DNA of 64,000 bases from Candidatus Omnitrophota bacterium. GTDB taxonomy: Bacteria; Omnitrophota; Omnitrophia; Omnitrophales; Aquincolibacteriaceae. A program made the translations under genes and the position numbers. The stretch covers positions 20,257 through 84,256 of the forward strand of contig JAKJDL010000003.1 of NCBI GenBank assembly GCA_022705945.1, given 5' to 3'. Each line of letters opens with the position of its first letter. Position 1 is the stretch's first letter. The notes under the pieces were generated by a model, which was not told the DNA's origin, searched no databases, and saw only the letters and a program-made list of their open reading frames with translations. Positions 3,463-63,263 of this stretch are shown in pieces.

Positions 3463-3536
3463 TGGGCCCGCCTGGACTTGAACCAGGGACCAAGCGATTA
3501 TGAGTCGCCTGCTCTAACCAACTGAGCTACGGGCCC
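3463..3536 (-). tRNA. tRNA-Met (anticodon CAU), elongator-type; could alternatively be tRNA-Ile2 (lysidine)
   Basis: Minus-strand sequence GGGCCCGTAGCTCAGTTGGTTAGAGCAGGCGACTCATAATCGCTTGGTCCCTGGTTCAAGTCCAGGCGGGCCCA folds by hand into a cloverleaf. Acceptor stem 7 bp (GGGCCCG/CGGGCCC), D arm GCTC/GAGC, anticodon stem GGCGA/TCGCT with loop CTCATAA, T arm CCTGG-TTCAAGT-CCAGG, discriminator A. The 1:72 position is a paired G:C, so it is not an initiator. No CCA is encoded. Confidence 0.8.
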
Positions 3537-3637
3537 CCAAAAACACAGAGGCGCCCCTTACATCCCGATCGCGGGGCTAGAATATCGGAGAAAAAAGGGC
3601 TTGGCAATAAAACAATTGTTTCGGAGAAAGAAACTTT

Positions 3638-4043
3638 TCAGGAAGATTGAAGTATTTGCTCAACCTTGCTCTGGAGGTTCACAAGGTCGAAGGGTTTTTC
3701 AATGTAACCGCTGATTCCCTCAAGCTCAAAAAGAGACTGCATGGTCGCGCCGGCTCCGGTAAGAATAATCACGGGCGTTTTTCTCAGCCTTGTCTGGGTT
3801 TCGATATTATCGTGGCGGTAGGAACGGAGCTTGCGAAGATAGGTCAGACCGTCTTCGCCGTGCGGGATCCGGACATCGACAAGCACTATGTCGGGGTGAT
3901 GCTCCTCGGTCTTTTTGAGACCTTCGGCGCCTTCGTTCGCCGTCAGAACTTTATAGCCGACCGTTTCGAAACGGGCTTTGACAATCTGACAGATATCATC
4001 CTCGTCATCTATGACCAAAATGCACTTTGAGCCCTCAGGCATG
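3638..4043 (-). CDS. Stand-alone response-regulator receiver domain protein (CheY-like)
   Basis: ILVIDDEDDICQIVKARF...DIVLVDVRIPHGEDGLTYLRKLR...IILTGAG are receiver motifs. The likely start is ATG at 4043 (MPEGSK...) with a GGAGG RBS 5-6 nt upstream; the track ORF extends to 4084. Confidence 0.8.
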
Positions 4044-4113: not shown

Positions 4114-5862
4114 TTACTCACTCAACTTGATATCCAGAAAATTCTTGAGTTTGCGGGCCCGGATCGGATGCCTCAACTTCCGCAAAGCCTTCGCTTCAAT
4201 CTGCCGAACGCGCTCGCGGGTCACATTAAAAATATGCCCCACTTCTTCAAGAGTCCTCGGATAACCATCCCCGATCCCGAACCTGAGCCGGAGAACTTTT
4301 TCTTCTCTCTCGGTCAGCGTCAGAAGCACATCATCCATTTGCTCTTTGAGCATGCTGTAGGCCGTCGCATTCGCCGGAGAAACCGCGGACTTGTCTTCGA
4401 TAAAATCCCCGAAGGTCGTATCTCCCTCGTCCCCGATCGGGGTTTGAAGGCTGATAGGTTCCTGCGCGATCTTGAGAATGCCCTTCACCTTATCAAGCGG
4501 CATTTTCATAACATGCGCCACCTCTTCAGGGGTGGGTTCACGGCCCGTTTCCTGAACCAGATGCCGCGACGCACGGAAAAACTTATTGATCGTTTCTATC
4601 ATGTGGACGGGAATACGAATCGTCCGGGCCTGATCCGCGATCGAACGCGTGATCGCCTGGCGAATCCACCAGGTCGCGTAAGTCGAAAACTTGTAGCCGC
4701 GTTTGTATTCGAATTTATCGACGGCTTTCATCAAACCGATATTTCCCTCCTGGATCAGGTCCAGGAACGAAAGGCCCCGGTTTGTATATTTTTTCGCGAT
4801 ACTCACCACAAGCCGGAGGTTGGCCGCCACAAGCGCTTTTTTAGCTTTGGAGAGCTCATATTCCCGTTTGACTATTCCTTTAAAATGCTCCAGGAGTTTT
4901 TCTTCGGACTCTCCCAATTCTTTCAGAATTTCACGGTTGCGTTCTTCAAGCTTTCCGATTTTCCCGCGGACACTGCTTCTGCGGACTCTTTTGATCTCCT
5001 CGCGATTTTTCCGGAGCTCACGAAGCTTCGCGCGGAGATTCGCCACGATCTTCTCAACGATCTGGATACTGAGATTAAACTGAAACAACAGGGCGGAAAT
5101 ATTGGACTGCTTACGGGACGCTCGAAACTTGCGAATCAGCTGTTGGAGCTTTTTCTTAAGCGTCTGGATCTTGACTTCCTGATCTTCGTCAACAATCTCT
5201 TCAAGCTGAAGCTCTCCGTCCAGGATCTTCCGCGCGATCTCAAGCACCTCATGACGGGCCGCTTTGGTCTGGTAAACAACCTTTTTTAGTTCCTCTTCAC
5301 AGTCCTCGATCTTTTTGGCCAGCGCAATTTCCTGCTCGCGCGTCAAAAGGGCGATCTGTCCCATTTGCCTGAGATAGGTCCGCACGGGATCGTCGATCCT
5401 GACCCGCTCCGGCTCTTCGATCCCGTCTTCTTCTAATTCGGAATCCTTGGTCTTCTTGGCGTCCACATCCTGCAGGACATCTATGGTGGACTTGCCCTGT
5501 TCCCCGATCGCCTCGCTCGTAACCCCGATCCCTTTTTCGTTCAGCTTGGCAATAAGCTCCTCGACCTTATCCGCCGACTGCATGTCGGCGGAAAGATTCT
5601 TTTTCATCTGCTCGATCGTGACAAACCCCTGCTTTTTGCCGAGGGCCATGAGCATTTCAAGAGCCGCGTCCATTTGTTGAGGAGTCACCGAAACGGCTTT
5701 CGCCTTTGAAGACGCGCCGCCCTTAGAGGGCTTCTTGCCGCGGGCACCGGACTTGGAAACGGATTTAACCGTTTTAGGGGAAGGTTTTTTAACCGTCTTT
5801 TTCACCCCGCTCAATCTCCCATTTGAAATGATTTTGAGGATAAGGACACGTTTTCCCGGCAA
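4114..5862 (-). CDS. rpoD: RNA polymerase sigma-70 factor RpoD with a lysine-rich N-terminal low-complexity extension
   Basis: Conserved regions 2-4, e.g. [60 protein letters not shown] and [29 protein letters not shown]. It lies downstream of dnaG, the classic dnaG-rpoD arrangement. The true start is uncertain: ATG 5862 or GTG about 5805 after a GGGAGA. Confidence 0.9.
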
Positions 5863-51155: not shown

Positions 51156-54100
51156 TTAAGCCGATCGTGCGATCAGGGACATCTTGACGAGCTCTGTCGC
51201 AAGTTCCGCGACATGGCTGATCACAAGCCCGTAAGTACCCTTTCTCTGCATTGCCATACCGTGATCTTGCATTTGTTTCAGAAGCGCTTCGGCGCTGGCG
51301 TCGGCAAACAATGTCAGCTGCACGGCAAATCCGGCAGCAATCAGTAGATCCTCATCCCCCATTCGCTCCCCGATCGCGACGTTCACGCCGCCCTCAAGCG
51401 ACGGAAGCAGCGCATCATCAAGGTGAATCGTCGCCATCCGGCCGTTCATCTGAGCAATGCGTCCGTTAAGCACAACCGCTTCGCTCTGGCCATCGCTGAT
51501 CGGATTCACTTTAAGGAACTTATCGAGGTCAGCGAGAACAGCGTTCCGTTCAGCAACGTTCGCGATGCCGGCTTTCCTGTTCTCGATCGCGATGCGGATC
51601 CGATCACGCAGCGACGCATCCCCCGAAGTTTCGAGCACCGGCGTCCCCCGGGGGGTATGTTTCCAAACATTGTGGAATGATCTCAGCAGAAGATAAAGCG
51701 CCCGCGGATTGTCCTTCAGGAGCCTTGAAAAAAGGCTTGATCCGGCATATACGACACCCCCCGCTTCAACATCGGCCCGATCATGAACGCGCGAAGATGT
51801 GATTGACTGGACCGTAGCTGACGGAATTTCCGGCAGGTCTTTCGCGGAAAAAATCGCGGAAAGAACTTCCGTTTCCGTCATTGCGGCATGGACGGTTCCG
51901 GGCACAGAAACCCCGGAAGCTTTGAGAAGTCTTATGAGCGCCTCTGTCCCGTTTTTAAGACTGTGCTCCAAACCATCCTGGACACGGATCGGAGCGATTC
52001 CGAAATAATATTCGCGAATCAACACCAAAACCTCGGCACTTACCAGTCTTCGAAGATTCATCTGATCCGGACTCGCAGTCACAGCCGCCCGCGCTTCGGA
52101 ACGGGATGCGGAAGTTTTTTCAGTAGGTATTTGCTTAATCCCCGCCGCGATCCGCAAAAGTTCAGCCTCTTGCGGGCTTAGGTGAAATTGCTTGACGATC
52201 GTATTAAACGTCTCTTGTACATCAGTATCCGCCGCGGCAGAAGAAGGGTCCAGAAAATCCAGAGCCTGGGACAACTGAGGTATCCCGCGGGGGATCCTGG
52301 ACTTCACAAGCTCGAAAACCTTCTTGCGCTCGCCCTTTTGACGCTCCAGCCGCGCCCGCTCAAACCCAGCCCTGCGGACGGCTAACGACCTCTCGAAATC
52401 CATCGCCCGCTCGGACAAAGCCTGCTCCTGCTGCGCGGCGATCTCCTTCAACTCGGCAGCATTCCTCTTCTTCTGGGTCTCCGTCTCCGCCGCGAAATCG
52501 CGACGCAACTTTGCCACTTCAGCAAGCAGCGCAGCCTCCTCGCCATCCTGGTCTTTCGCGAAAATCTTGAGTTCATTTTGGAGCGCTTGTTCGACCGACA
52601 CCCGAACACCTTCGAGCACTTGTTTCCACTGACCGGCGAGCCAGGTGCTCAAAGCATCCGCCTCGGTCTGCCTCCATTTCTTCTTGGCCTCGATCTTCGC
52701 GGCATCGCCATTAAGCTCGTTCCACACGGCACGCTCAATGTCGTTCAGGAGGTCATTCCGCATCACGGTAAAATTGGTCAGCGGAACAGGCTGACCGTGC
52801 CACAGGTCCACACCGGAGAGCACAGTAGCGCTGTAATACGGCATAGCTCTCCTACGGATCACTTTGGCCATGGGGACATCTTCCCCCCGCAGCGCCTTTT
52901 GCAGCGTCGATAGGCCGACGACATCCACATTCACCGGAAGCCCGGGTATGACGCGTTTAATTTTCGAGGACAACTTCTCCGCGCTCACCCGTTCAAACGC
53001 GCGGTCTCCCGCGACCACCACGATCAGATCCAGATCATTCGGTGTTTCTTTCCAGACATAACTCCCCATCACCGACAACTCCACCAGGGGCTCGACCTGA
53101 GATATCAGCTTGCTCTCATAAAGAGCAGCTATTATCGCCGTAATCTTGGCTTTGAGCCGAGCAATGCGTTCCGTGATCTTTGTCGCCGCCGACGGATCGG
53201 ACTTGGTCAAATGCGGCCACAGCCAGCTCCTCGACATCAGTCTCGCTACCGATTCACGGGCATCGGACACGATCAAACCGTCCTGGTTCGGATCAAAGGA
53301 CGGGATCTTGAAATCCCAGAAAGTGACGTCTGCCGCGAAGGGCTTGATGATCACTTCCAGCTTGCCGCCAACCTTGGGTCGGGCGGGCTTCGGCAGTCGC
53401 GTCACGGGCACTTCAACCCCCATAGCATTTCTCGAACGGATATTGAATATATCAAGGTGTGGAGCCTTATCCGTCACGGAATAGGAACCACTCTCATTTC
53501 CGTAGATATCATAGGTGGTCTCCTCATGCGTTTCCTCGGGTTCTTCCCTATAATCCGCAAGCAATGATTCCCCCCGCATATAGGCGGTCTGGATGCCTGC
53601 GACCTCATCATCGCTTAAAACTTTGTAGGTTCTGCTGTGTCCTCCAATCCAGTCAAAATAGCGCCTCAATTCTTTAAGTGATACGCCCGGGCCGGAGGCA
53701 ACCATCAACGAAAGGATCCCCGCGGCAAGGCGATGACTATCCTCACCAAATCTTTCCCTCAGACACTGCAAAAGCGCCGGAATCGCCATGGGATCTTTCC
53801 ATTCGCGAAAAACTCTCAGGATCGATTTATAGACGGAATCGGAGCGGGCATCGTTGTATAATTCGGCAATCAACGCGGAAAGCAGGCTTCTATCGCCGAT
53901 CTCGCCGATCGCATCGACCGCAAGAGCACAAACGTTGTCCCGCGGGTCCCCCAACAGTTCTATCAGCGCGTCAACGGCCTTGAAGTGCCTTAAAGCCCCG
54001 ACGAGCGATTTACTTGCTTGTTGTTGACGTTTCTGGTTTTTCGCTTCCCGGATGATTGCCGGCAGGGCCTTGCCCGCATTAAGGGATGCGCCGAGAGCCG

Positions 54101-57100
54101 CTGCCGCAAGCGCACAAACATTGTCCCGAGGATCCCCCAGCAGCTCGATCAAGCCATCGACCTCTTTGAGCTGGACCAGCGCCTTCACCAGCACCTCGGC
54201 CGCAGCCGGTTTACGCTTGATGTTCCTCGATTCCTGGAGTAGCGCAGCAACGGATCTTTTATCTCCCACCTCTAGCAATTCCGCGGTAACCGCGATGCAA
54301 ACACCGTCATCGACATCTTTAAGAGCTTTTATCAGCGCGTCGACCGATCGTGCGTCCTTGTATTCGGCTAGCGCACCAGCAAGCCGCTTCCTCAGTTCAA
54401 CGTGCGGACTGGCGACGAGCCGTTCCGCGAACACCTCCGCGACTCGCGGGGATTTTATTGAGGCGAGTACCTCAGCCGCCATGCTGGCGACATCCACTTG
54501 GGCATGGGATAAGAGCGGGATCACCAATTCGATGGATGCGGGATCCCTTAAACGGACCAAAGCCATTTTCGCTTCTTGATCCACTCTCGATCCATGGTAA
54601 GAGGAATACCGGTTATCTTCCAGCGCACGGACCAGCGCCGGGACCACTTTGGGATGATTCATCCCGCCCAAGGCCCGAACGGCGGCGCAGGAGAGAGGGA
54701 CATCTATATCCCTTTGCATCAGCGATATCAGCGGGTCAACGGCTCGAGGATCTTTTATTTCCCCAAGCGTCTTGATCGCGGCGATCCGGCGATCTCCGCC
54801 GCTACCATTATGGTTACCATCCCACCACTTCGGCTGGATGTCGCGAAGGACTTTCTGGAATTGCCTTTCCTGTTCAGGTGTCAGACGGGTTTCGGAACGC
54901 AGCGTTGACTGCGCCACCTTAACATTTCCCGCTCGAATGCGCAGCGCCGCTTGGGCAACATTCTCCGGAACTGCACCGGCGCCCGGTAAAATCCAGTTGC
55001 CCTTGATGGCTCCTTTCGGGTTATCCGGATCAAGACGTTCGATCTGGCCAAGCGCATGGTCAATCCAGAAATCGAGCTCCGCAGGATCCGTTTCCGGCCC
55101 CGTAACGGGAAGCTCGGGAGCATAGCTGTAGAAATCGACCTTGGTGTCCCAGTTGAACTGCTTTTCAAAAATGAGCCGGGAAAGGTGCATGCCGGTGGGC
55201 ATTTGAACCAAAATAGCGTTGGAGATCTTGGCGCCCTGCCGCTTCAAAAGGGCGGCACTAAACTCCGCATTCTGACCCGTGTGCATGGAATCCGCTTCGA
55301 TATCAAAAGGAACGGAAAGTCCCCCTTGTCCATTTCCAAACCCGAGGTCTGTAAGGTCCTTCGTGATAAGTTTGCTGAGCGTAACAGCCTCGGCAACCGC
55401 GCCGGGCCCCTTACCGGAAGCAAGAATGCGCTTGGGTTTGTATTTGAGAAAAGCCTCTACGGCAGCCTTGGCCGTCACTTCCAGTTTAGGATTTCCAAGA
55501 ACAATTAGGACGTCCGGATTCTGCGGTGCATTCTGATCTCGTTCCGCCAAAAATCCAAACACCGTCCCGACATCCGACGCTTGTCCCGTTTGCCCGGCTG
55601 TCTCCGTTTTGCGAGCTTCGGAGCGCGGGGTCAGGACATCAAGCACTTCCACGGTAACGCTTGCGCCGACGGGATTGAAGCTGCGGCCCCACGCCGTTCT
55701 GCCAAAATGGAATGTGATCCCGCTCATACCGGCAGGAATAGTCACGATCACATCGGTGTTACCGGAATAAGGCCCCTTCTTCCAAGACGGGTTATCACCG
55801 GGCCCGCTGATATAAAATCGCGCATCACCCGACGTTACGATATGCAGGCCCTTGCCTCCAAGGCCGCTCCCGGTGGAAGCAGACGCCCAGGTGTAGGAGT
55901 TCCCGCCATTCACCAACGTGTTGCCGTTCACCTTCGCGTCACCATAAGCGCTCCAGCCGCCGAGCACACTCCGTGCACTACCCATATCATAATTCTCCGA
56001 AGAAGGCTTCGTATCCGCCGAAGAATCGCGTTTCGGCTTTTCAGGGCGGGTGGCCACGGGAGTTGTCGCGGTCGGTGTAATATCGTCTTCGCTGTCCTTC
56101 TCTTCGCGCACTATGCCGTTAGCTTTTGTCACTGCAAATTGACTTGCCCGAGATTCGGAACGCCTTTTCACCTCACGCGCGGCCTCATGCGAAACAGCTT
56201 TCAAAATCAAATTCCTCTCTTTTTCAAAAAAGGCCTCAGCATCCTCACCGTTCAGCCCGGTTGCCGCTTGAAAGGTTTCAAGAATTTGTCCGGCAACATC
56301 AAAATAGTCCTGTCCCATTGCGTCGAGCGTTTTTCTCCCCTGCAACGCGGCCCAAAGCAGGTTGGTGTCTGCGGTCACATTCTTGACAAGATCCTGAGCG
56401 ATCCGCGAAGCCAGCGCATCAGCATCCACCCGTGATTCCGACCGCGGGGTCAGGACATCAAGCGCTTCCACGGTAACATGCGCTCCTTGCGGATTAAGCG
56501 GCTCCCCCCAGGCTTCGGCGCCAAAGTGAACCGTCACGTCAACCGCATCGGCCGGAAGGTCAAGAATCATGTCGGAATTCGCGGGGAAAGGTCCCATTTT
56601 CCAGGAGGGATTCGGGCCGGATCCGCTGATGTAATAATCCGCGGTCCCGGAAGTCACGACATGCAGCCCCTTGCCAGCAATACTCACAACAGGAACCGTT
56701 ACAGCCGATGCCCACCTCATCGTATTTCTTGCGTTAATCAGTGTGTTCCCCAAAACATCCGCATCACCCCACCACGACGTCCAGTTCCCGAGAATGCTCT
56801 GCGCGGAATCCATATCGTATTTCCCGGGTTCTTCGGTAAGGTTCACCCGATCAATCACCTTCACGCGATAGAAACGCTGTCCGGGAAGCTCGCCGCCCGT
56901 AAAACTTCCGTCATCGGTCCAAGATAGACTGTTAACGTCTGAAAAAATTCCTCTCTGCGCAATCTCCCAGTCTCCTTGCGTGAGGCTGTCACGATAGTCG
57001 ACCTGATAAATAAACCCGGGCTGGGTTTTAAAAGTGACTTTGAAATTGCCGTTTTCCTGTTTAAGGCCGCGAATCACGGGCGTTTCAACCGGAACAGGAA

Positions 57101-60100
57101 TCTCATATCTCCCTGCGTTCGGATCGATCGTATTTGCCAGGTTCACGGTTGCCGTGATCGGGTCCGTTGTCGAGGTTTCGGCCAGAACCCCTGTTCCCTT
57201 CTTCACGATCATCGCCCAACTATTCGCCGGAGCCGTACGAATCTCATTACTCCCCAAGTCTTCGAGCGCTTGATAGATCGATTCGCTTAAAGCGGGATTT
57301 ATATTCAAGCCGCTATTGTCAGCGACTCCAATCAGTACGACCGAACCATTTGGGATGGCGTTCAAGTAATCAGCTACCCCTTGTCTAAAAGCGGCATCGT
57401 ACTGATTTGCCCATGTATCAAAATGCTTGAATTCTTTGAACCGTATGCCGGTTTTTTCATCTAGGATCGCAATATTGACCCCCCGGGCGCCACCACCATC
57501 CACACCCTTACGGAACAAGACGGTCTTGCCATTAAGTTCAAACTTCACCGAACCACCGGAAGTTATCTGCATCACGGGATTCGTCACAAGCGGGATCGCG
57601 TTCTGCCCGTCAAGTGAGAAGCGCTGCTGAACCGCGTAATAGGCCGGTCTCGGATTGCGATAAATATCAAGAAGCCCAAAGTACTCTTCGTCATTATGTC
57701 CGTCCGGTTGGCCCCCGTTTTGCTCCCAACTGGGCGCCTGCGTCATGGGGTAACCATTTTTGTGCCACTCGTCGTTCCATTCAAAATAAAGTCCCCCGGA
57801 GATCACTCCATTCGTACGTGAGGAAGCAAGATTGAAAATGATCTCATCCCAGAGACCGCGATTGAAATCAGCCTGCACCTGTTCATCCACTCCGCTCGCA
57901 TAATGGCTATAGGCATCGGCCCCAAACTCACTGACGAATGCCGGACGGGTAGTAACTTTGGACCATTGCGAAAAGGCATCCCCAAAACTCCAGCCGCGGT
58001 AAAGCTGCAATCCAAAAACATGGACGCTCGGAAGATCAGCAACAATATCAGCGGTTTGAATACCACCGTCCAAGGTTTCTGGCGCATAATGATAGGGGCT
58101 TCCGAAGTACCACTGAACGATATGCGGATCCGCCATGAAAGTGATGACCACATGGTTCGTGTCCAGGCCTTTGACGATCTGGGCCGCCCGCTCTGTGTAT
58201 TCAACGGAATCCTGGAGAGTCGTAAAGGTGTTGTAGTAATAGTTGATATCCCATTCGTTCCCGATCCCCCATCCGAGGATCGCGGGATGGTTTTTAAAAG
58301 TGTTCACAACGCCGGTAATATTATTGGTCCTTGCGATCTGGCCGTAAAAAGGTGAATCGACCGGCATAATGACCTTGATCCCATGCTTGTAAAACTGGTC
58401 CAGAAGCGCAACCGCCTGCGCGTTGGTTCCCGGATCATAGTAGGGCCGGATCACATTGGCGCCCATCGCCGCCATCATGGGAATGTCATTCGTCGACCAC
58501 TTGAACATTTCCTGGCGATAGACAAGCGGATACCACTGCGGATCGATTCCCGGGGAGGTGGGACCCCAGTTAGCGCCTTTGATGGTCAACGCGTAAGGAG
58601 TTCCCAGCGTTCCGTCCGGTTTCCGCTCCTCGACGAAAATCCGGCGGTCCCCTTCTTTCGTATAGGTCACAGTCGGAAGATTGGGCACACCGAAAGTCTG
58701 CGCTACCACATCCCTCGCGGCAAGCAGAAACGCCGCAACTCCGGCAAGCATCGTCAAAAAAACCGAAGATGAAATACTAAAAACTGAAACCCTGCGATCC
58801 GAATCTTTTGCCGGGGACCGTCCTTTGCGCACCTCCGAGCGGACGGGAACAATCCTTATAATCTCCGGTCGCAAAACCTTCCATACTTGATGCGCTTCCA
58901 CTTTGGTGGTGTTAGTGAACTCGTATTCATCCCCCTCAGCTTCCGAAGGCGGACTGTGGCCTCTCGGCAACATGAACGTACTACTTTCCACAGTTGCTTT
59001 TTCGGGAACTTTCATCCATTCGCCTTCTTCGGGGAAATAATCGATCCGGAACGGTTGATTCATCTGCAAAGCATCCGGAAGAAGATGCAAAACGAGGTAG
59101 CTCAAATGAAGATTTTTAACATAATCAGACGGGGGAATATAAGAAACGGTGATCAACTTCTCCTGCTCGAGAAAATTATATACCAAGAACTGTTCGCTCT
59201 CTTTTCTTTCGTACAAACTGATCTTCTCCAGAGCTTCGCTCGGAATCAGTTCTTTCAATTGTTCGATCGCCCGAAGAATACCGGGGGCAGCGAGATGGGA
59301 AGAATGCATCAAATAATGAACCAACCCATCCAGATCATTCCCCCGGATAAAACGGCGAACATTCACCCAGAAATCAGCCCAGAAATAAACCCAGAAATAA
59401 GCCGGGAAATGAGCCCGGAAATAAGCCCCTCGGAAATGCCGGAAAACTAAAACCAAGATTCCGAATCCGGCCAATGTGACAAAACCGACTAGAGCATCTC
59501 CCATATCTAAACGCACACTGGCAGCGGCATTGGCTAAAAGACTCGTTGGGTCGATTGTAACACCTGCTGCGCCGACAGCATGCGCAATAGCGGGCACCGA
59601 AAAAACAAATTCATGCATTCGGGCTTCCGAGCGGGATTTGTAATCATCAAGCTGTTTTTTGTAACGCGTCACGCGATCCTGCGCTTCGGCCTCCTGTTTT
59701 TTCAGGATCTCCAGACGCCTGGATTCATTAGACCTCGGATTCCGTAATTTTGTTGGGTCCCGCTCTAGCCTCCGGATCTCGTTCCCAATCACGTCAAGAT
59801 CCGACTGCGCGCGACGCAGAAGGGCCTCCAGCCACTCCCCGTCTGCGTCATAAGAGGTCTTCACCGTTTCGCCGCGAGTTTCAGAGCGGGGTGAGGCGGA
59901 GCCGTTCCCCGAACTTTGCAATGCGGTATAAAGAATCCCCAACGGGCCCGAAAGCATAGGATAGTGCCCTGCGACGGAAGTTTCGTGATCAGGGAAGCGG
60001 CCCCAGGGGTTTGGAGCGGTCAGGGTCGCGTGAATAGCACGAATACGCTCAACCACCCATAACTTTTGCAAATCTTCAAATACGCTTCCTCGCCATTCGT

Positions 60101-63100
60101 CAACATCCCCAAGGTCGCCCAGGAGATTAAGAACCGCCTCATGGGCCGCAATCTTGCCGGCAACCGACTTGTCATCCCCCAATGTAATTTCAAAAATGCT
60201 TTGCTCCCCAGTCCGGACCTCAAGCGTCCAGATGGCGGTATACTCCTTCAAATAAAGACTCAACGTCCCAAGCGAAGCGATCCGCTCCTCCCCCACAAAC
60301 TTTTTCAAAAAATAGCGACCACTCTCCTTGACAAGAGCGACATCCTGGAACTTTTCACGCGCCAGCCCCGGCCAGCCTGCCGGTATGTGCCGAGACTGAG
60401 TCGCCCGCGCTTCGGCGCGAGGTTTGGCGGCAAAAATGTCCAGATTAACACGCACCCGGGGAGCATCCTTGTGGGCATTCGCGATCGTCACCCCAGCGCC
60501 GTTGTCCATTCTCACATGGTCGCGAGCCGCCTGATAGTTCGCAAGAACAATCGGTCCCCGGCGGTCAAACACAAGACGGATCCTCTCATCGAGAATACTG
60601 GGAGACCCTTGGGACAGAAGGATTTCCAGGCTCTCCAGAAACTCCCTCCCCCATCTTTCCCAGGAAACATGTTCCACCACAAAACCGGAATATACCGGAT
60701 CTTCATGCATGGCGGCTTCGATCTTTTTACGCACCGCACCGGTCGCTAAAGGATAAAGTTTTTCCGGATCTAACCTTGCATTGCGGACCACCCTCAAAAC
60801 ATGTCCGGCAATGACCGCGATTATTCCCGCAGCCGCCCCAAATACACCCGTTAGCCTCGGGAACACCCCCCTCCCGGTTGCAGCGCCTTCCACTCGTGCT
60901 TCGGAGCGGAGTGAGGCGGTTACACCCTGTTCCTCACGGATGGCCTCCAATATCCTCTTCCTCTCCTGGTAAAGAGAACGGAGACTGGATCGTATGGATT
61001 CCAAAGTTTTTTCGATCTCCGGAAGCCTGCGGGGAGCATCAGCCAGCGCTTCAGGCGTCAAACCGTAATGTCTTGTTCGTAAACGATTCCGTTCACCAAT
61101 AAGTTGAAACTCCTGCTCCTGCAATCGCCAAATATCATCCTGGACGGTATCCCAGCGGCGAGATGTGTCCACCGGCACAGCATCCGACGCTTGTCCCGTT
61201 TGCCCGGCTGTCTCCGTTTTGCGAGCTTCGGAGCGGACACTCGATGTCGCGATACCGGCCGCTTTCTTGAGACGGACGGCAAGGTCCTGGGTGGCTTTGA
61301 GATCGTGTTTCACGACAGTCTGCGCCGCGCGATAAACCATCAGGGCTAACTTCTGCGGATCAATGCCGTAGGAAGTGCCTTCGGGAGCGGAAAAAACCTT
61401 CGGATCGGAAAGAAAAACCGATTCGTATGTGGATTTTAAAACCGGAGCTGGAGACTCATGGCCGGGGACCCGTTTTCGTCCTTCGTTCTGTTGAGCCCCG
61501 GGTTGCGAGGTTCGAGCCCTGGTCCGCAAGATGTGAGCGATATAGGCCCGATGCCCTTCCTCATCCACCCCGCTGATAAGCGGTGAAATGAGCGCGTAGG
61601 TATAATTCCTGGACGCAAAATAATCCTTGAAGGGCTGTGAGTGGAAACCTCCCGTAATAACCGCCGCTTTCCGGACCCCGGTCTCACGGAGGCGTTTTTC
61701 GACCTTTTCGATCATCGCAAGATCACGCGCTTTGACTCCCGAATAAAATTCCATCGCGGAATCATAGAGCGCATCCAACTCCGCCAAATGATCGAATTGC
61801 ACGTTTTTGATCTTGCGGATACCGGATTGGGGACGGAGGATAGCGCTTTCAAACCTGCGGGCAATACCTGAGGGGCTCAAGCTCCCTTCGTCTTCCGTCG
61901 TTCGCCGACCGATTTTTTCATAATCATCAGCCGTCAATTCCAGCGAAAACAGTTTCTGCAGGAGCCGATAATCCCTGAGCATGCCGACGATCTTCTTTTC
62001 CGTCTCGGTCTTCGCGAGTTTTTCGGCAATCATGTCCGTGAGTTTTGAAACCTCACCCATGAGACGGTCTGCCTTAAGCTCGCTCGATAAAAGCAGCGTC
62101 CCGATAAAATACCGGACATTCGGGAAAGCGGCATAATTGAAATCCTTCGGAAGGAGTCTGACCATATCCTCAAAAAGTAAGCTTGTTTCGGGATCGGGAA
62201 GCTGCCGGCTCATCGAATCATTTCGAAGCAATGATTCGACCGAGGACACAAGACCGCCGGACCGTAAAGCCGCGGGCTCATGGCTTGCGGCATGTGCCGT
62301 GCGGTGTGTGTCTTGTGGAATAAAACGCCGAAGAGCTTTGAGAAATTCATCCCGTTCTTTTTCAAAAGCTTTCCCGTTAAACTGCTGATGCAGTTTTTTC
62401 AATTTGAAAAAACGCACCATCATCGGCCATTGAATTTGAAGCGCGGCGTTTCGGAGGTCCATTTTGAGGGATCTTTCCGATTCCTCTCCGAGACAGGATA
62501 ACCAGGCGTCAAACGGCATGAGCTTCTTTTCAAAGGAATCTTCGGAACGGAGAAATTTCCGGAGATTGTCGTTCAAATAATGACTGGAGAGCCGGCTGAT
62601 CCCTTCATCCATATTTCTGAGGAACCGGGATGACTTTTCCTTTTGATTCAGTACAGTCACAAAGGATTCACCGTTCGCCCGATAGGTTCCGATGTCTTCG
62701 ATTCCCAGCGCTCTCGGCAAAGGGGTCCGCGGCGATCCGGCGGAAAATCGGTTTGCGTTTTTCTGCAGTTTGTCCAGCAAATAGAGTTCGGGTCCCTTTA
62801 CGATTGCGTGCTTCGTAAGCTCATCCGCCACACTTTGCGTCAGTTTGGGATTGCCGGGAAAAAAATTCAAAATGTCCGGATCAAGTTCGTAAGCGCTGCC
62901 TTCCACGAACACTGTCTGGACCCCGTGATTTTCATCCAGATAATGAAGTATCTCGCGGATTTTCTGCTGAGCTTCATAATGCCCGTGAGCGGTCTGGATA
63001 TGAATGATGCTGGCACCTTGTCCCGTGCGGATATCCTCGACCTTTCCGAGATTTTGAGGAAGCGCGAGCTTCAGACTTGAATCAAGCGCCACCTGGTAAG

Positions 63101-63263
63101 GGAGCCTGGTTTCAGCAATTGACGGCATCGACGCGGCACCGAAAGACACTCCGGGCGTCCAGATCGTGGTGGCAATGAAAGCAACCAGAGTGACAAGGGC
63201 GGTAACAGACTTACTTTTGCGGAAGGACAAACTGGAAACATTTGCACTGTGGTTGCTGTCCAT
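51156..63263 (-). CDS. Giant (4035 aa) multi-domain secreted/membrane-anchored protein of unknown function. Domains are itemised in the findings: signal anchor, TraB/GumN/Tiki-like, GH-A glycoside hydrolase, ILEI/PANDER-like, tandem-duplicated unknown domain, DUF218-like, HEAT repeats, minimal nucleotidyltransferase motif, coiled coils.
   Basis: Uninterrupted 12,108-nt reading frame on the minus strand. N-terminal MDSNHSANVSSLSFRKSKSVTALVTLVAFIATTIWTPGVSFGAAS signal anchor. Internal domains were recognised by motif: GNEW/SEFG for the glycoside hydrolase, GS...DLDLIVVVAGD for the nucleotidyltransferase, HEAT/PBS-lyase repeats. Nine RSE[ATSV]R motifs. The AT-rich 380-bp upstream region and a terminator-like hairpin downstream suggest a monocistronic unit. 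Confidence 0.85.
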   Translation of the reverse strand: MDSNHSANVSSLSFRKSKSVTALVTLVAFIATTIWTPGVSFGAASMPSIAETRLPYQVALDSSLKLALPQNLGKVEDIRTGQGASIIHIQTAHGHYEAQQKIREILHYLDENHGVQTVFVEGSAYELDPDILNFFPGNPKLTQSVADELTKHAIVKGPELYLLDKLQKNANRFSAGSPRTPLPRALGIEDIGTYRANGESFVTVLNQKEKSSRFLRNMDEGISRLSSHYLNDNLRKFLRSEDSFEKKLMPFDAWLSCLGEESERSLKMDLRNAALQIQWPMMVRFFKLKKLHQQFNGKAFEKERDEFLKALRRFIPQDTHRTAHAASHEPAALRSGGLVSSVESLLRNDSMSRQLPDPETSLLFEDMVRLLPKDFNYAAFPNVRYFIGTLLLSSELKADRLMGEVSKLTDMIAEKLAKTETEKKIVGMLRDYRLLQKLFSLELTADDYEKIGRRTTEDEGSLSPSGIARRFESAILRPQSGIRKIKNVQFDHLAELDALYDSAMEFYSGVKARDLAMIEKVEKRLRETGVRKAAVITGGFHSQPFKDYFASRNYTYALISPLISGVDEEGHRAYIAHILRTRARTSQPGAQQNEGRKRVPGHESPAPVLKSTYESVFLSDPKVFSAPEGTSYGIDPQKLALMVYRAAQTVVKHDLKATQDLAVRLKKAAGIATSSVRSEARKTETAGQTGQASDAVPVDTSRRWDTVQDDIWRLQEQEFQLIGERNRLRTRHYGLTPEALADAPRRLPEIEKTLESIRSSLRSLYQERKRILEAIREEQGVTASLRSEARVEGAATGRGVFPRLTGVFGAAAGIIAVIAGHVLRVVRNARLDPEKLYPLATGAVRKKIEAAMHEDPVYSGFVVEHVSWERWGREFLESLEILLSQGSPSILDERIRLVFDRRGPIVLANYQAARDHVRMDNGAGVTIANAHKDAPRVRVNLDIFAAKPRAEARATQSRHIPAGWPGLAREKFQDVALVKESGRYFLKKFVGEERIASLGTLSLYLKEYTAIWTLEVRTGEQSIFEITLGDDKSVAGKIAAHEAVLNLLGDLGDVDEWRGSVFEDLQKLWVVERIRAIHATLTAPNPWGRFPDHETSVAGHYPMLSGPLGILYTALQSSGNGSASPRSETRGETVKTSYDADGEWLEALLRRAQSDLDVIGNEIRRLERDPTKLRNPRSNESRRLEILKKQEAEAQDRVTRYKKQLDDYKSRSEARMHEFVFSVPAIAHAVGAAGVTIDPTSLLANAAASVRLDMGDALVGFVTLAGFGILVLVFRHFRGAYFRAHFPAYFWVYFWADFWVNVRRFIRGNDLDGLVHYLMHSSHLAAPGILRAIEQLKELIPSEALEKISLYERKESEQFLVYNFLEQEKLITVSYIPPSDYVKNLHLSYLVLHLLPDALQMNQPFRIDYFPEEGEWMKVPEKATVESSTFMLPRGHSPPSEAEGDEYEFTNTTKVEAHQVWKVLRPEIIRIVPVRSEVRKGRSPAKDSDRRVSVFSISSSVFLTMLAGVAAFLLAARDVVAQTFGVPNLPTVTYTKEGDRRIFVEERKPDGTLGTPYALTIKGANWGPTSPGIDPQWYPLVYRQEMFKWSTNDIPMMAAMGANVIRPYYDPGTNAQAVALLDQFYKHGIKVIMPVDSPFYGQIARTNNITGVVNTFKNHPAILGWGIGNEWDINYYYNTFTTLQDSVEYTERAAQIVKGLDTNHVVITFMADPHIVQWYFGSPYHYAPETLDGGIQTADIVADLPSVHVFGLQLYRGWSFGDAFSQWSKVTTRPAFVSEFGADAYSHYASGVDEQVQADFNRGLWDEIIFNLASSRTNGVISGGLYFEWNDEWHKNGYPMTQAPSWEQNGGQPDGHNDEEYFGLLDIYRNPRPAYYAVQQRFSLDGQNAIPLVTNPVMQITSGGSVKFELNGKTVLFRKGVDGGGARGVNIAILDEKTGIRFKEFKHFDTWANQYDAAFRQGVADYLNAIPNGSVVLIGVADNSGLNINPALSESIYQALEDLGSNEIRTAPANSWAMIVKKGTGVLAETSTTDPITATVNLANTIDPNAGRYEIPVPVETPVIRGLKQENGNFKVTFKTQPGFIYQVDYRDSLTQGDWEIAQRGIFSDVNSLSWTDDGSFTGGELPGQRFYRVKVIDRVNLTEEPGKYDMDSAQSILGNWTSWWGDADVLGNTLINARNTMRWASAVTVPVVSIAGKGLHVVTSGTADYYISGSGPNPSWKMGPFPANSDMILDLPADAVDVTVHFGAEAWGEPLNPQGAHVTVEALDVLTPRSESRVDADALASRIAQDLVKNVTADTNLLWAALQGRKTLDAMGQDYFDVAGQILETFQAATGLNGEDAEAFFEKERNLILKAVSHEAAREVKRRSESRASQFAVTKANGIVREEKDSEDDITPTATTPVATRPEKPKRDSSADTKPSSENYDMGSARSVLGGWSAYGDAKVNGNTLVNGGNSYTWASASTGSGLGGKGLHIVTSGDARFYISGPGDNPSWKKGPYSGNTDVIVTIPAGMSGITFHFGRTAWGRSFNPVGASVTVEVLDVLTPRSEARKTETAGQTGQASDVGTVFGFLAERDQNAPQNPDVLIVLGNPKLEVTAKAAVEAFLKYKPKRILASGKGPGAVAEAVTLSKLITKDLTDLGFGNGQGGLSVPFDIEADSMHTGQNAEFSAALLKRQGAKISNAILVQMPTGMHLSRLIFEKQFNWDTKVDFYSYAPELPVTGPETDPAELDFWIDHALGQIERLDPDNPKGAIKGNWILPGAGAVPENVAQAALRIRAGNVKVAQSTLRSETRLTPEQERQFQKVLRDIQPKWWDGNHNGSGGDRRIAAIKTLGEIKDPRAVDPLISLMQRDIDVPLSCAAVRALGGMNHPKVVPALVRALEDNRYSSYHGSRVDQEAKMALVRLRDPASIELVIPLLSHAQVDVASMAAEVLASIKSPRVAEVFAERLVASPHVELRKRLAGALAEYKDARSVDALIKALKDVDDGVCIAVTAELLEVGDKRSVAALLQESRNIKRKPAAAEVLVKALVQLKEVDGLIELLGDPRDNVCALAAAALGASLNAGKALPAIIREAKNQKRQQQASKSLVGALRHFKAVDALIELLGDPRDNVCALAVDAIGEIGDRSLLSALIAELYNDARSDSVYKSILRVFREWKDPMAIPALLQCLRERFGEDSHRLAAGILSLMVASGPGVSLKELRRYFDWIGGHSRTYKVLSDDEVAGIQTAYMRGESLLADYREEPEETHEETTYDIYGNESGSYSVTDKAPHLDIFNIRSRNAMGVEVPVTRLPKPARPKVGGKLEVIIKPFAADVTFWDFKIPSFDPNQDGLIVSDARESVARLMSRSWLWPHLTKSDPSAATKITERIARLKAKITAIIAALYESKLISQVEPLVELSVMGSYVWKETPNDLDLIVVVAGDRAFERVSAEKLSSKIKRVIPGLPVNVDVVGLSTLQKALRGEDVPMAKVIRRRAMPYYSATVLSGVDLWHGQPVPLTNFTVMRNDLLNDIERAVWNELNGDAAKIEAKKKWRQTEADALSTWLAGQWKQVLEGVRVSVEQALQNELKIFAKDQDGEEAALLAEVAKLRRDFAAETETQKKRNAAELKEIAAQQEQALSERAMDFERSLAVRRAGFERARLERQKGERKKVFELVKSRIPRGIPQLSQALDFLDPSSAAADTDVQETFNTIVKQFHLSPQEAELLRIAAGIKQIPTEKTSASRSEARAAVTASPDQMNLRRLVSAEVLVLIREYYFGIAPIRVQDGLEHSLKNGTEALIRLLKASGVSVPGTVHAAMTETEVLSAIFSAKDLPEIPSATVQSITSSRVHDRADVEAGGVVYAGSSLFSRLLKDNPRALYLLLRSFHNVWKHTPRGTPVLETSGDASLRDRIRIAIENRKAGIANVAERNAVLADLDKFLKVNPISDGQSEAVVLNGRIAQMNGRMATIHLDDALLPSLEGGVNVAIGERMGDEDLLIAAGFAVQLTLFADASAEALLKQMQDHGMAMQRKGTYGLVISHVAELATELVKMSLIARSA
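55571..55625. repeat. 55-bp exact intragenic direct repeat, copy 1 (partner at 61182..61236)
   Basis: CATCCGACGCTTGTCCCGTTTGCCCGGCTGTCTCCGTTTTGCGAGCTTCGGAGCG is identical at both sites and encodes RSEARKTETAGQTGQASD on the minus strand. Confidence 0.9.
59366..59447. repeat. Intragenic 12-bp tandem repeat (about 5-6 units) encoding aromatic tetrapeptide repeats A-[Y/H/D]-F-[R/P/W]
   Basis: CCCAGAAATCAG/CCCAGAAATAAA/CCCAGAAATAAG/CCGGGAAATGAG/CCCGGAAATAAG... read on the minus strand as AYFR-AHFP-AYFW-VYFW-ADFW, next to predicted TM helices. Confidence 0.85.
61182..61236. repeat. 55-bp exact intragenic direct repeat, copy 2 (partner at 55571..55625)
   Basis: Same 55-mer as 55571..55625, about 5.6 kb away within the same ORF. 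Confidence 0.9.

Follow-up and report, generated by a model that had tools for sequence, protein, structure and literature searches.

A duplicated beta domain and a recurrent module-end motif in a giant open reading frame of an Omnitrophota bacterium

Giant proteins that carry several enzymes on one polypeptide have been described from Omnitrophota, and it is suspected that they are cleaved (bioRxiv 10.1101/2023.11.21.568195; bioRxiv 10.64898/2026.06.07.730766). According to West-Roberts et al. 2023, the analysis of Omnitrophota giant proteins is blocked by missing information on their cleavage points (bioRxiv 10.1101/2023.11.21.568195). Here we describe a giant open reading frame (ORF) of 4,035 residues from Candidatus Omnitrophota bacterium and two of its features, a domain of about 125 residues that is present in two copies and a short motif, R-S-E-x-R, that recurs at the ends of modules. 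Of the two, the motif is the more novel lead. The ORF lies in a window of 64,000 nucleotides (contig JAKJDL010000003.1 of assembly GCA_022705945.1, positions 20,257 to 84,256), whose own numbering is used for all nucleotide coordinates of the ORF. The domain was first picked out by a model that read the window alone (the original prediction), which described it as a beta-rich module of no nameable family, tandemly duplicated and possibly carbohydrate-binding given a neighbouring hydrolase.

The duplicated domain and the hydrolase unit before it

The two copies of the domain are clearly homologous. Residues 2149-2278 (nt 56819..56430) and 2425-2551 (nt 55991..55611) are identical at 76 of 130 positions (58%, BLASTP E 3e-53), and the alignment is interrupted by one gap of 1 residue and one of 2 residues. 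Approximately 70 columns are invariant, including YISG.G.NPSWK and HFG..AWG, so that the repeat claimed in the original prediction is real and its template string agrees with the alignment. In DNA, identity between the copies falls to 61%, with saturation at synonymous sites (pS 0.72) and a dN/dS of approximately 0.14, as under purifying selection. Saturation together with this low ratio indicates that the duplication is old and that both copies have been kept by selection.

The arrangement itself differs from the tandem one first proposed. The copies are dispersed paralogues within one ORF and not strictly head-to-tail units, because the 146-residue spacer between them holds a separate, non-repetitive module of 94 residues as well as a linker. 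An acidic Thr/Pro/Lys-rich linker had been foreseen and is indeed present, at approximately 52 residues rich in T, P, K, E, and D, but it follows the 94-residue module instead of filling the spacer. This module (aa 2279-2372) has a homologue in L007, another Omnitrophota giant ORF, at 34% identity (E 3e-10). Matching bases had also been placed 3' of each copy. The 20-mer GCGGGGTCAGGACATCAAGC does have two exact occurrences where 0 are expected, at 55625 and 56444, but these positions are 1-2 nt away from those first given and the match lies inside the copies, as the reverse-strand coding sequence of the C-terminal LDVLTPR in each. The features of this region, with the evidence for each, are as follows.

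51156..63263, minus strand: giant ORF, 4,035 aa (12,108 nt), from the ORF list and its translation.
56820..58826, minus strand: hydrolase unit, aa 1480-2148, from Pfam and PDB matches and stand-alone homologues.
56445..56819, minus strand: beta-domain copy 1, aa 2149-2273, from homology to copy 2, a hidden Markov model (HMM) score of 241 bits, and an AlphaFold2 (AF2) model.
56430..56444, minus strand: RSESR motif closing copy 1, aa 2274-2278, from motif positions.
56148..56429, minus strand: intervening module of 94 aa, aa 2279-2372, whose last residues are a second RSESR (56148-56162), from segmentation and the L007 homologue.
55992..56147, minus strand: low-complexity T/P/K/E/D-rich linker of approximately 52 aa, aa 2373-2424, read from the sequence.
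55626..55991, minus strand: beta-domain copy 2, aa 2425-2546, from homology to copy 1 and an HMM score of 233 bits.
55611..55625, minus strand: RSEAR motif closing copy 2, aa 2547-2551, from motif positions.

The AF2 model, built from the two-copy alignment (mean pLDDT 69, pTM 0.69), is all-beta, with approximately 10 strands and no helix, in keeping with the earlier description as beta-rich. The final RSESR of copy 1 would lie outside the fold, as its pLDDT is below 50. When the model was compared with the PDB using Foldseek, there was no match at an E at or below 1e-3. The better-aligning matches (TM-score 0.45-0.55, probability 0.97-1.0, E 5e-3 to 2e-2) are to the carbohydrate-binding modules (CBMs) CBM29, CBM16, CBM86, and CBM4, the CBM-like C-terminal domains of Vip3A, enzyme chains of MtGlu5, and the protease VesC. 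Cupin chains are also among the matches, with poor TM-scores. Against the viral structures of BFVD, the matches are to phage SGNH-hydrolase, tail-protein, and CenC-like CBM domains at E 3e-4. A jelly-roll, CBM-like sandwich is thus a reasonable assignment of fold class for the predicted structure. There is no Ig or FN3 match in Pfam, and no classical Ig or FN3 entry among the top 50 Foldseek matches listed, all of them chains of CBM, cupin, or jelly-roll type. A confident match to a known CBM or Ig-like family, which the original prediction had named as the result that would speak against it, was searched for and not found.

The domain is also very rare. Searches of Pfam, NCBIfam, and, by profile, the sequences of the PDB gave no match for either copy, even at E values up to 10, consistent with the earlier statement that no family could be named. 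A word-index search of 5.8 billion clusters with copy 1 gave no match. Among 1.84 billion representative proteins, searched exhaustively with an HMMER profile, there is one true homologue, P0001 (E 2e-48). Two other candidates, P0002 and P0003, were rejected as repeat-driven; the alignment to the Ig-like repeats of P0002 covers just 46 residues, crosses a repeat boundary, and is judged spurious. P0001 is encoded on a 4,155-bp JGI metagenome contig from a landfill (3300014205, Ga0172380_10038597; locus L001), and the sole match of a pattern scan of 241 million metagenome records is to this same contig. A three-copy HMM detects no further copy of the domain in 42 related Omnitrophota loci. The domain of P0001 is 59% identical to copy 1 and 65% identical to copy 2. 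It occupies the same place, behind a small beta domain ending in ...RFYRVKVIDR, and it keeps the tail LDVLTPRSEAR. By these searches, the domain is a new family of extremely narrow distribution. The L001 contig contains an in-frame stop at codon 13 of frame 1 (nt 37-39), within the small beta domain, where it reads GFV-stop-QIEYRD against GFIYQVDYRD, with Tyr, in the window; the called L001 gene begins downstream of this stop. Possible causes are an error in sequencing, a polymorphism between strains, or decay to a pseudogene.

The hydrolase of the original prediction is found directly upstream of copy 1 on the same polypeptide. The unit to which it belongs (aa 1480-2148) is made up, in order, of a transmembrane segment, a clan GH-A TIM barrel that is GH158/GH2-like, an ILEI domain, and a small beta domain. 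The transmembrane segment is signal-peptide-like, 21 residues long (aa 1497-1517, nt 58713-58775), and preceded by a basic stretch. The TIM barrel matches Glyco_hydro_2_C in Pfam (7e-5) and the GH158 entry 9oro_A in the PDB (2e-5), while the ILEI domain (aa 1927-2023) matches its Pfam family at 3e-16 and FAM3C, FAM3B, and the POMGnT1 stem in the PDB. The small beta domain has no family assignment and, as in P0001, ends in ...RFYRVKVIDR immediately before the new domain.

A homologue search with the hydrolase unit returned 54 proteins, and these shed light on its origin. The closest, P0013-P0019, are complete stand-alone proteins of 647-664 aa with 50-60% identity to aa 1502-2148. Each begins with an N-terminal signal peptide, and their mature N-terminus, ...FGVPN.P, corresponds to ...AQTFGVPNLP in the window. 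They stop after ...RFYRV.(A/V)(I/V)D...., precisely where the giant ORF goes on with NLTEEPGK-YDM.... Because these homologues match the unit including its signal peptide and end where it ends, the unit is a once-free secreted protein that was captured together with its signal peptide. It is possible that the signal-peptide-like segment kept inside the giant ORF allows internal processing by signal peptidase. One stand-alone homologue is an ordinary operon gene (L045). When the L045 operon was compared with the segments of the giant ORF, the hydrolase unit alone matched, and fusion of this operon was rejected; an apparent read-through past the stop of the L045 homologue is spurious. Farther homologues carry CBM6, Big_2, FG-GAP/VCBS, cadherin-like, DUF4082, or type IX secretion system (T9SS) sorting domains in the same C-terminal slot. 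Since the stand-alone proteins end there and others carry such diverse domains, the beta domain occupies a slot in which relatives keep binding or anchoring modules of variable kind. The gene of a free secreted hydrolase was thus built into the giant ORF, signal peptide included, after which it gained a new domain and was closed by R-S-E-x-R.

The R-S-E-x-R motif and the giant open reading frame

The template of the original prediction ended in ...PRSE.R. This tail is conserved as described, but it is not specific to the domain, being a general module-end motif across the ORF and its relatives. R-S-E-x-R occurs 10 times in the giant ORF, at aa 677, 786, 1126, 1211, 1475, 2274, 2368, 2547, 2789, and 3721, where approximately 0.07 occurrences are expected (a hand estimate from amino-acid frequencies). 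The rest of the window contains a single instance in one long ORF, that of tyrosyl-tRNA synthetase (TyrRS). Codons for the motif vary synonymously among the sites of the giant ORF, and the motif therefore belongs to the peptide level. A DNA- or RNA-level signal is rejected on the grounds of this variation and of the L001 orthologue, in which other codons specify the same tail.

The same motif is widespread in the relatives, which together with the window provide 44 ORFs of at least 1,000 aa (112,020 aa in all). RSE.R is present in this set 192 times against 2.4 expected, an 80-fold enrichment, and RAE.R 71 times against 3.7. Strings that occur once per protein in the head domain aside, RSE.R is approximately the most enriched gapped pentamer. 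As a logo, the sites read R-[SA]-E-[VALMI]-R, with no conservation on either flank, and a median of 174 aa separates them. Since Ala replaces Ser at 27% of sites, a phosphoserine site is unlikely. Giant ORFs carry 1.7 motifs per 1,000 aa, other ORFs 0.11. Restriction of the motif to ORFs that bear the conserved head was considered and is unsupported, as neighbouring or fragmentary giant ORFs with no detected head carry 1.0 per 1,000 aa.

Several observations place the motif at module ends. The ends of BLAST homology blocks fall within -10 to +5 residues of the motif end in 10.6% of cases, compared with 2.8% for random positions, and homology blocks between giant ORFs do not begin right after the motif. 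Blocks that end at the motif and do not start behind it indicate that the motif belongs to the preceding cassette, of which it would form part of the C-terminal end, with a variable linker behind it. In both AF2 models, of the beta domain and of the head, it falls in a low-confidence tail. Transmembrane segments at most 40 aa downstream of a motif number 28 of 145, against 14 expected (approximately twofold), and 3 of the 5 transmembrane segments of the giant ORF lie no more than 25 residues behind a motif. No mention of the motif was found in the searchable literature. At the ends of cassettes it is a candidate signal for processing or sorting, and its 80-fold enrichment there makes it a concrete, testable candidate for the cleavage points of giant proteins. 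It also provides a rational way to divide such proteins into units for structure prediction.

Two module junctions carry a near-identical repeat.

55560..55625, strand not specified: junction repeat of 66 nt after copy 2, encoding RSEARKTETAGQTGQASD, 94% identical to 61170-61235.
61170..61235, strand not specified: the other copy of this repeat, where the head segment ends, aa 677-698, 94% identical to 55560-55625.

The 55 nt right after copy 2 (RSEAR-KTETAGQTGQASD) are identical to the junction behind the head segment. This identity suggests that the post-copy-2 junction is a chimera joined at the motif, in which the tail of the domain would have been combined with the linker that follows segment 1. 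The ends of the two domain copies are likewise unusually similar, with 88% identity over the last 48 nt compared with 40% over the 42 nt directly upstream; put otherwise, the 3' ends (55612-55658 and 56431-56477) are about 88-89% identical, against 61% elsewhere. As the synonymous codons used for this tail peptide differ in the L001 orthologue, the local identity probably reflects gene conversion within the genome and not selection at the nucleotide level. Together, the junctions point to recent recombination at motif-plus-linker sites that may shuffle cassettes.

The giant ORF as a whole is divided into 11 segments by R-S-E-x-R and contains five predicted transmembrane segments, which a simple hydropathy scan places at aa 23-41, 805-825, 1219-1237, 1256-1274, and 1497-1517. 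Pfam identifies glycoside hydrolase (GH), ILEI, DUF218, and HEAT domains. An exact-sequence look-up of the 4,035-aa protein returned no record. Its remaining parts are listed here.

61221..63263, minus strand: conserved N-terminal head segment, aa 1-681, common to 42 Omnitrophota loci.
52089-55610, minus strand: DUF218 module, aa 2552-2793, after copy 2, then a long HEAT-repeat region, from Pfam.
51159-52088, minus strand: C-terminal segment of 310 aa, aa 3726-4035, from homology to the C-terminus of the L007 giant ORF.

After the HEAT-repeat region, the C-terminal part of the ORF is without a family match. Its last 310 residues align at 30% identity (E 1e-27) with the C-terminal end of the giant ORF L007, which suggests a conserved tail module, and its end (...ARSA-stop) resembles that of the L001 protein (...AASA-stop). 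With homologues of both the N-terminal segment and the last 310 residues in related giant ORFs, the family appears to have a conserved head, a variable middle, and, in some members, a conserved tail. The genes beside the giant ORF are housekeeping genes, namely those for TyrRS, an ATP-binding cassette (ABC) transporter, pyrroline-5-carboxylate (P5C) reductase, and isoleucyl-tRNA synthetase (IleRS).

The head comprises the first 681 residues, and its homologues (37-50% identity) are found in proteins of Omnitrophota metagenome-assembled genomes (MAGs) only. A genome scan with the conserved head core returned 42 loci, all labelled Omnitrophota or uncultured MAGs, most of which contain ORFs of more than 3,700 aa that run to the end of the retrieved locus. 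Invariant residues of the head include H88, Q90, H93, E121, G122, and T537-G-G-F-H541, and the segment has a large helical insertion. Weak Pfam matches, each in a single member, are to DUF5694 (E 0.026) and Cofac_haem_bdg (E 0.12), and the top Foldseek matches, BcR135, EreC, and ChaN, are also weak (E 0.3-2). These hints are weak but convergent, and point to a relationship with the Ere/ChaN/Tiki superfamily, some members of which are proteases. The head may be an enzyme. In L004, the head domain (P0004; also P0010) is interrupted by in-frame insertions at 3471-3552, 3936-4007, and 4290-4361, in which runs of the heptamer GTACGGA are paired with complementary CCGTACGCC runs and which encode ...EYGVRSTA...TPYAFRRT.... 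They resemble in-frame, hairpin-forming palindromic elements. No such inverted-repeat element was found when the stretch 55400-57000 of the window was scanned for inverted repeats.

It is tempting to combine these features. R-[SA]-E-x-R may be a cleavage site that closes each cassette, in which case the giant ORFs would be polyproteins of fused free genes with their signal peptides, cut by the Ere/ChaN/Tiki-like head or by another enzyme of the lineage, with cassettes shuffled by recombination at motif plus linker. Among these cassettes would be the duplicated beta domain. We put this forward tentatively and consider it rather doubtful. No peptidase domain, including C39 or S8, is detected in the giant ORF with Pfam or NCBIfam, and by the inferred topology motifs lie on either side of the membrane, which is hard to reconcile with one protease confined to a single compartment.

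Possible roles of the beta domain

The best explanation for the domain, which we rate at about an even chance, is that the copies are paralogues of a lineage-restricted, all-beta (jelly-roll or CBM-like) extracytoplasmic accessory module of approximately 125 residues, most likely a putative binder of glycans or cell-surface ligands. Copy 1 would have been appended at the C-terminal end of a hydrolase unit (GH-A hydrolase, ILEI, small beta domain) that other bacteria have as a free secreted protein, and copy 2 would be suspended 276 residues further on from a flexible linker of PT type. PT-rich linkers are typical of extracellular carbohydrate-active enzyme (CAZyme) architectures. Binding of a glycan or cell-surface ligand would be the most likely job of the domain and could keep the hydrolase on a polymeric substrate, such as the envelope polysaccharide of prey or host, with the two copies allowing bivalent binding. 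Closure of each copy by R-S-E-x-R, as the general module-end motif, would make the domain one cassette in a cassette-built protein. As for location, a segment that resembles a signal peptide and is basic on its N-side (aa 1480-1517) comes before the hydrolase unit, and no later transmembrane segment is predicted up to the C-terminus. From the positive-inside rule, applied to the simple hydropathy scan, we infer that residues 1518 onward are outside the cytoplasmic membrane. The carbohydrate-binding guess of the original prediction is plausible insofar as the predicted fold resembles that of jelly-roll CBMs, but the resemblance is weak (TM-score ~0.5, E 3e-4 to 2e-2, with a model of pLDDT 69).

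There are also points that weigh against such a role. Among the homologues detected for the hydrolase unit, 54 of 54 lack the domain, as do 42 of 42 related giant-ORF loci, so the hydrolase can do without it. Behind copy 2 lies the DUF218 module and not a hydrolase. The outside location comes from a simple hydropathy scan and would also put the HEAT repeats and other modules of a usually cytoplasmic type outside the membrane. Finally, conservation in the domain is strongest in the last strand and the motif behind it (VTV.xLDVLTPRSE.R), a pattern that hints at a function linked to the module boundary and not to a ligand site.

This last point leads to an alternative in which the domain would mainly present R-S-E-x-R to a processing or sorting enzyme and would bind no substrate, much as T9SS cargo carries beta-sandwich C-terminal domains that are first recognised and afterwards removed by cleavage. 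The tail VTV.xLDVLTPRSE.R is strictly conserved in all three known copies, with the motif in a low-confidence and probably flexible tail right behind the last strand. Bacteroidota homologues of the hydrolase unit have a T9SS sorting domain in the same C-terminal position, and homology blocks between giant ORFs end at the motif four times as often as at random positions. Nearly all other R-S-E-x-R sites (192 in the 44 ORFs) nevertheless follow unrelated modules that lack this domain, so the motif does not need it. In addition, neither Pfam nor NCBIfam yields a match to T9SS C-terminal sorting domains, and the copies are internal, with 1,757 and 1,484 residues after them, instead of at the C-terminus of the protein. 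An adaptor of this kind is unlikely. A passive spacer, that is, an Ig- or FN3-like stalk that gives reach or rigidity and has no ligand, strikes us as quite improbable. The domain is small and all-beta, lies behind another small beta domain and beside a flexible linker, and giant surface proteins commonly hold structural spacers. Repeat scaffolds have been described in giant proteins (bioRxiv 10.64898/2026.06.07.730766). Even so, many Trp, Tyr, His, Asn, and Asp residues are invariant despite saturated synonymous divergence, which is more than spacers usually keep, the better-aligning fold matches (TM-score ~0.5) are jelly-roll CBMs and not Ig or FN3 domains, and there are two copies only and no array.

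It is also conceivable that the repeat was made by mis-assembly or that the giant ORF is not a real gene. An assembler could in principle have been misled by the exact 55-nt repeat that two junctions share, and the near-identical junctions are possibly an assembly chimera. For the domain itself, such an artefact is effectively refuted and its probability is close to nil: the copies are just 61% identical in DNA with a dN/dS of 0.14, a stop-free ORF of 12.1 kb is not a chance event, an independent contig has the same domain in the same context, and homologous giant ORFs occur at 42 loci. The domain by itself is another orphan accessory module of a glycoside hydrolase, useful for CAZy-type annotation and unsurprising, and it helps to guess what Omnitrophota attach to.

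Comparison with known systems

The closest parallels to the domain are the beta-jelly-roll CBMs (CBM29, CBM16, CBM86, CBM4/CenC-like, and CBM6). Common to both are a length of approximately 125-150 aa, a predicted all-beta sandwich, attachment by a linker to a glycoside hydrolase, and the presence of more than one copy per protein. In contrast to these CBMs, the domain has a conserved C-terminal R-S-E-x-R tail; it shows no detectable sequence similarity to them, and the similarity in fold is below confident thresholds. The hydrolase unit has its counterpart in stand-alone secreted GH-A/ILEI/small-beta proteins of approximately 650 aa (ILEI PF15711, Glyco_hydro_2_C PF02836), which are encoded by separate genes and are not modules of a giant ORF.

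The motif can be compared with the T9SS Por_Secre_tail and with sortase- and exosortase-type signals, in which a small beta-sandwich or a short motif closes a secreted unit. As with sortase- and exosortase-type signals, some R-S-E-x-R sites are followed by a transmembrane helix and basic residues (aa 786-832; P0010). Unlike all of these signals, R-S-E-x-R is internal and occurs many times per protein, it has no sequence match to them, and a transmembrane helix follows a minority of its sites only. With regard to the published Omnitrophota giant proteins, the papers that describe them report neither cleavage points nor an R-S-E-x-R motif, and at 4,035 aa the ORF described here is far under their thresholds of 10 or 30 kaa or more. 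It nevertheless shares with them the phylum, several transmembrane segments, suspected post-translational cleavage, and the combination of unrelated enzyme and HEAT modules on one polypeptide.

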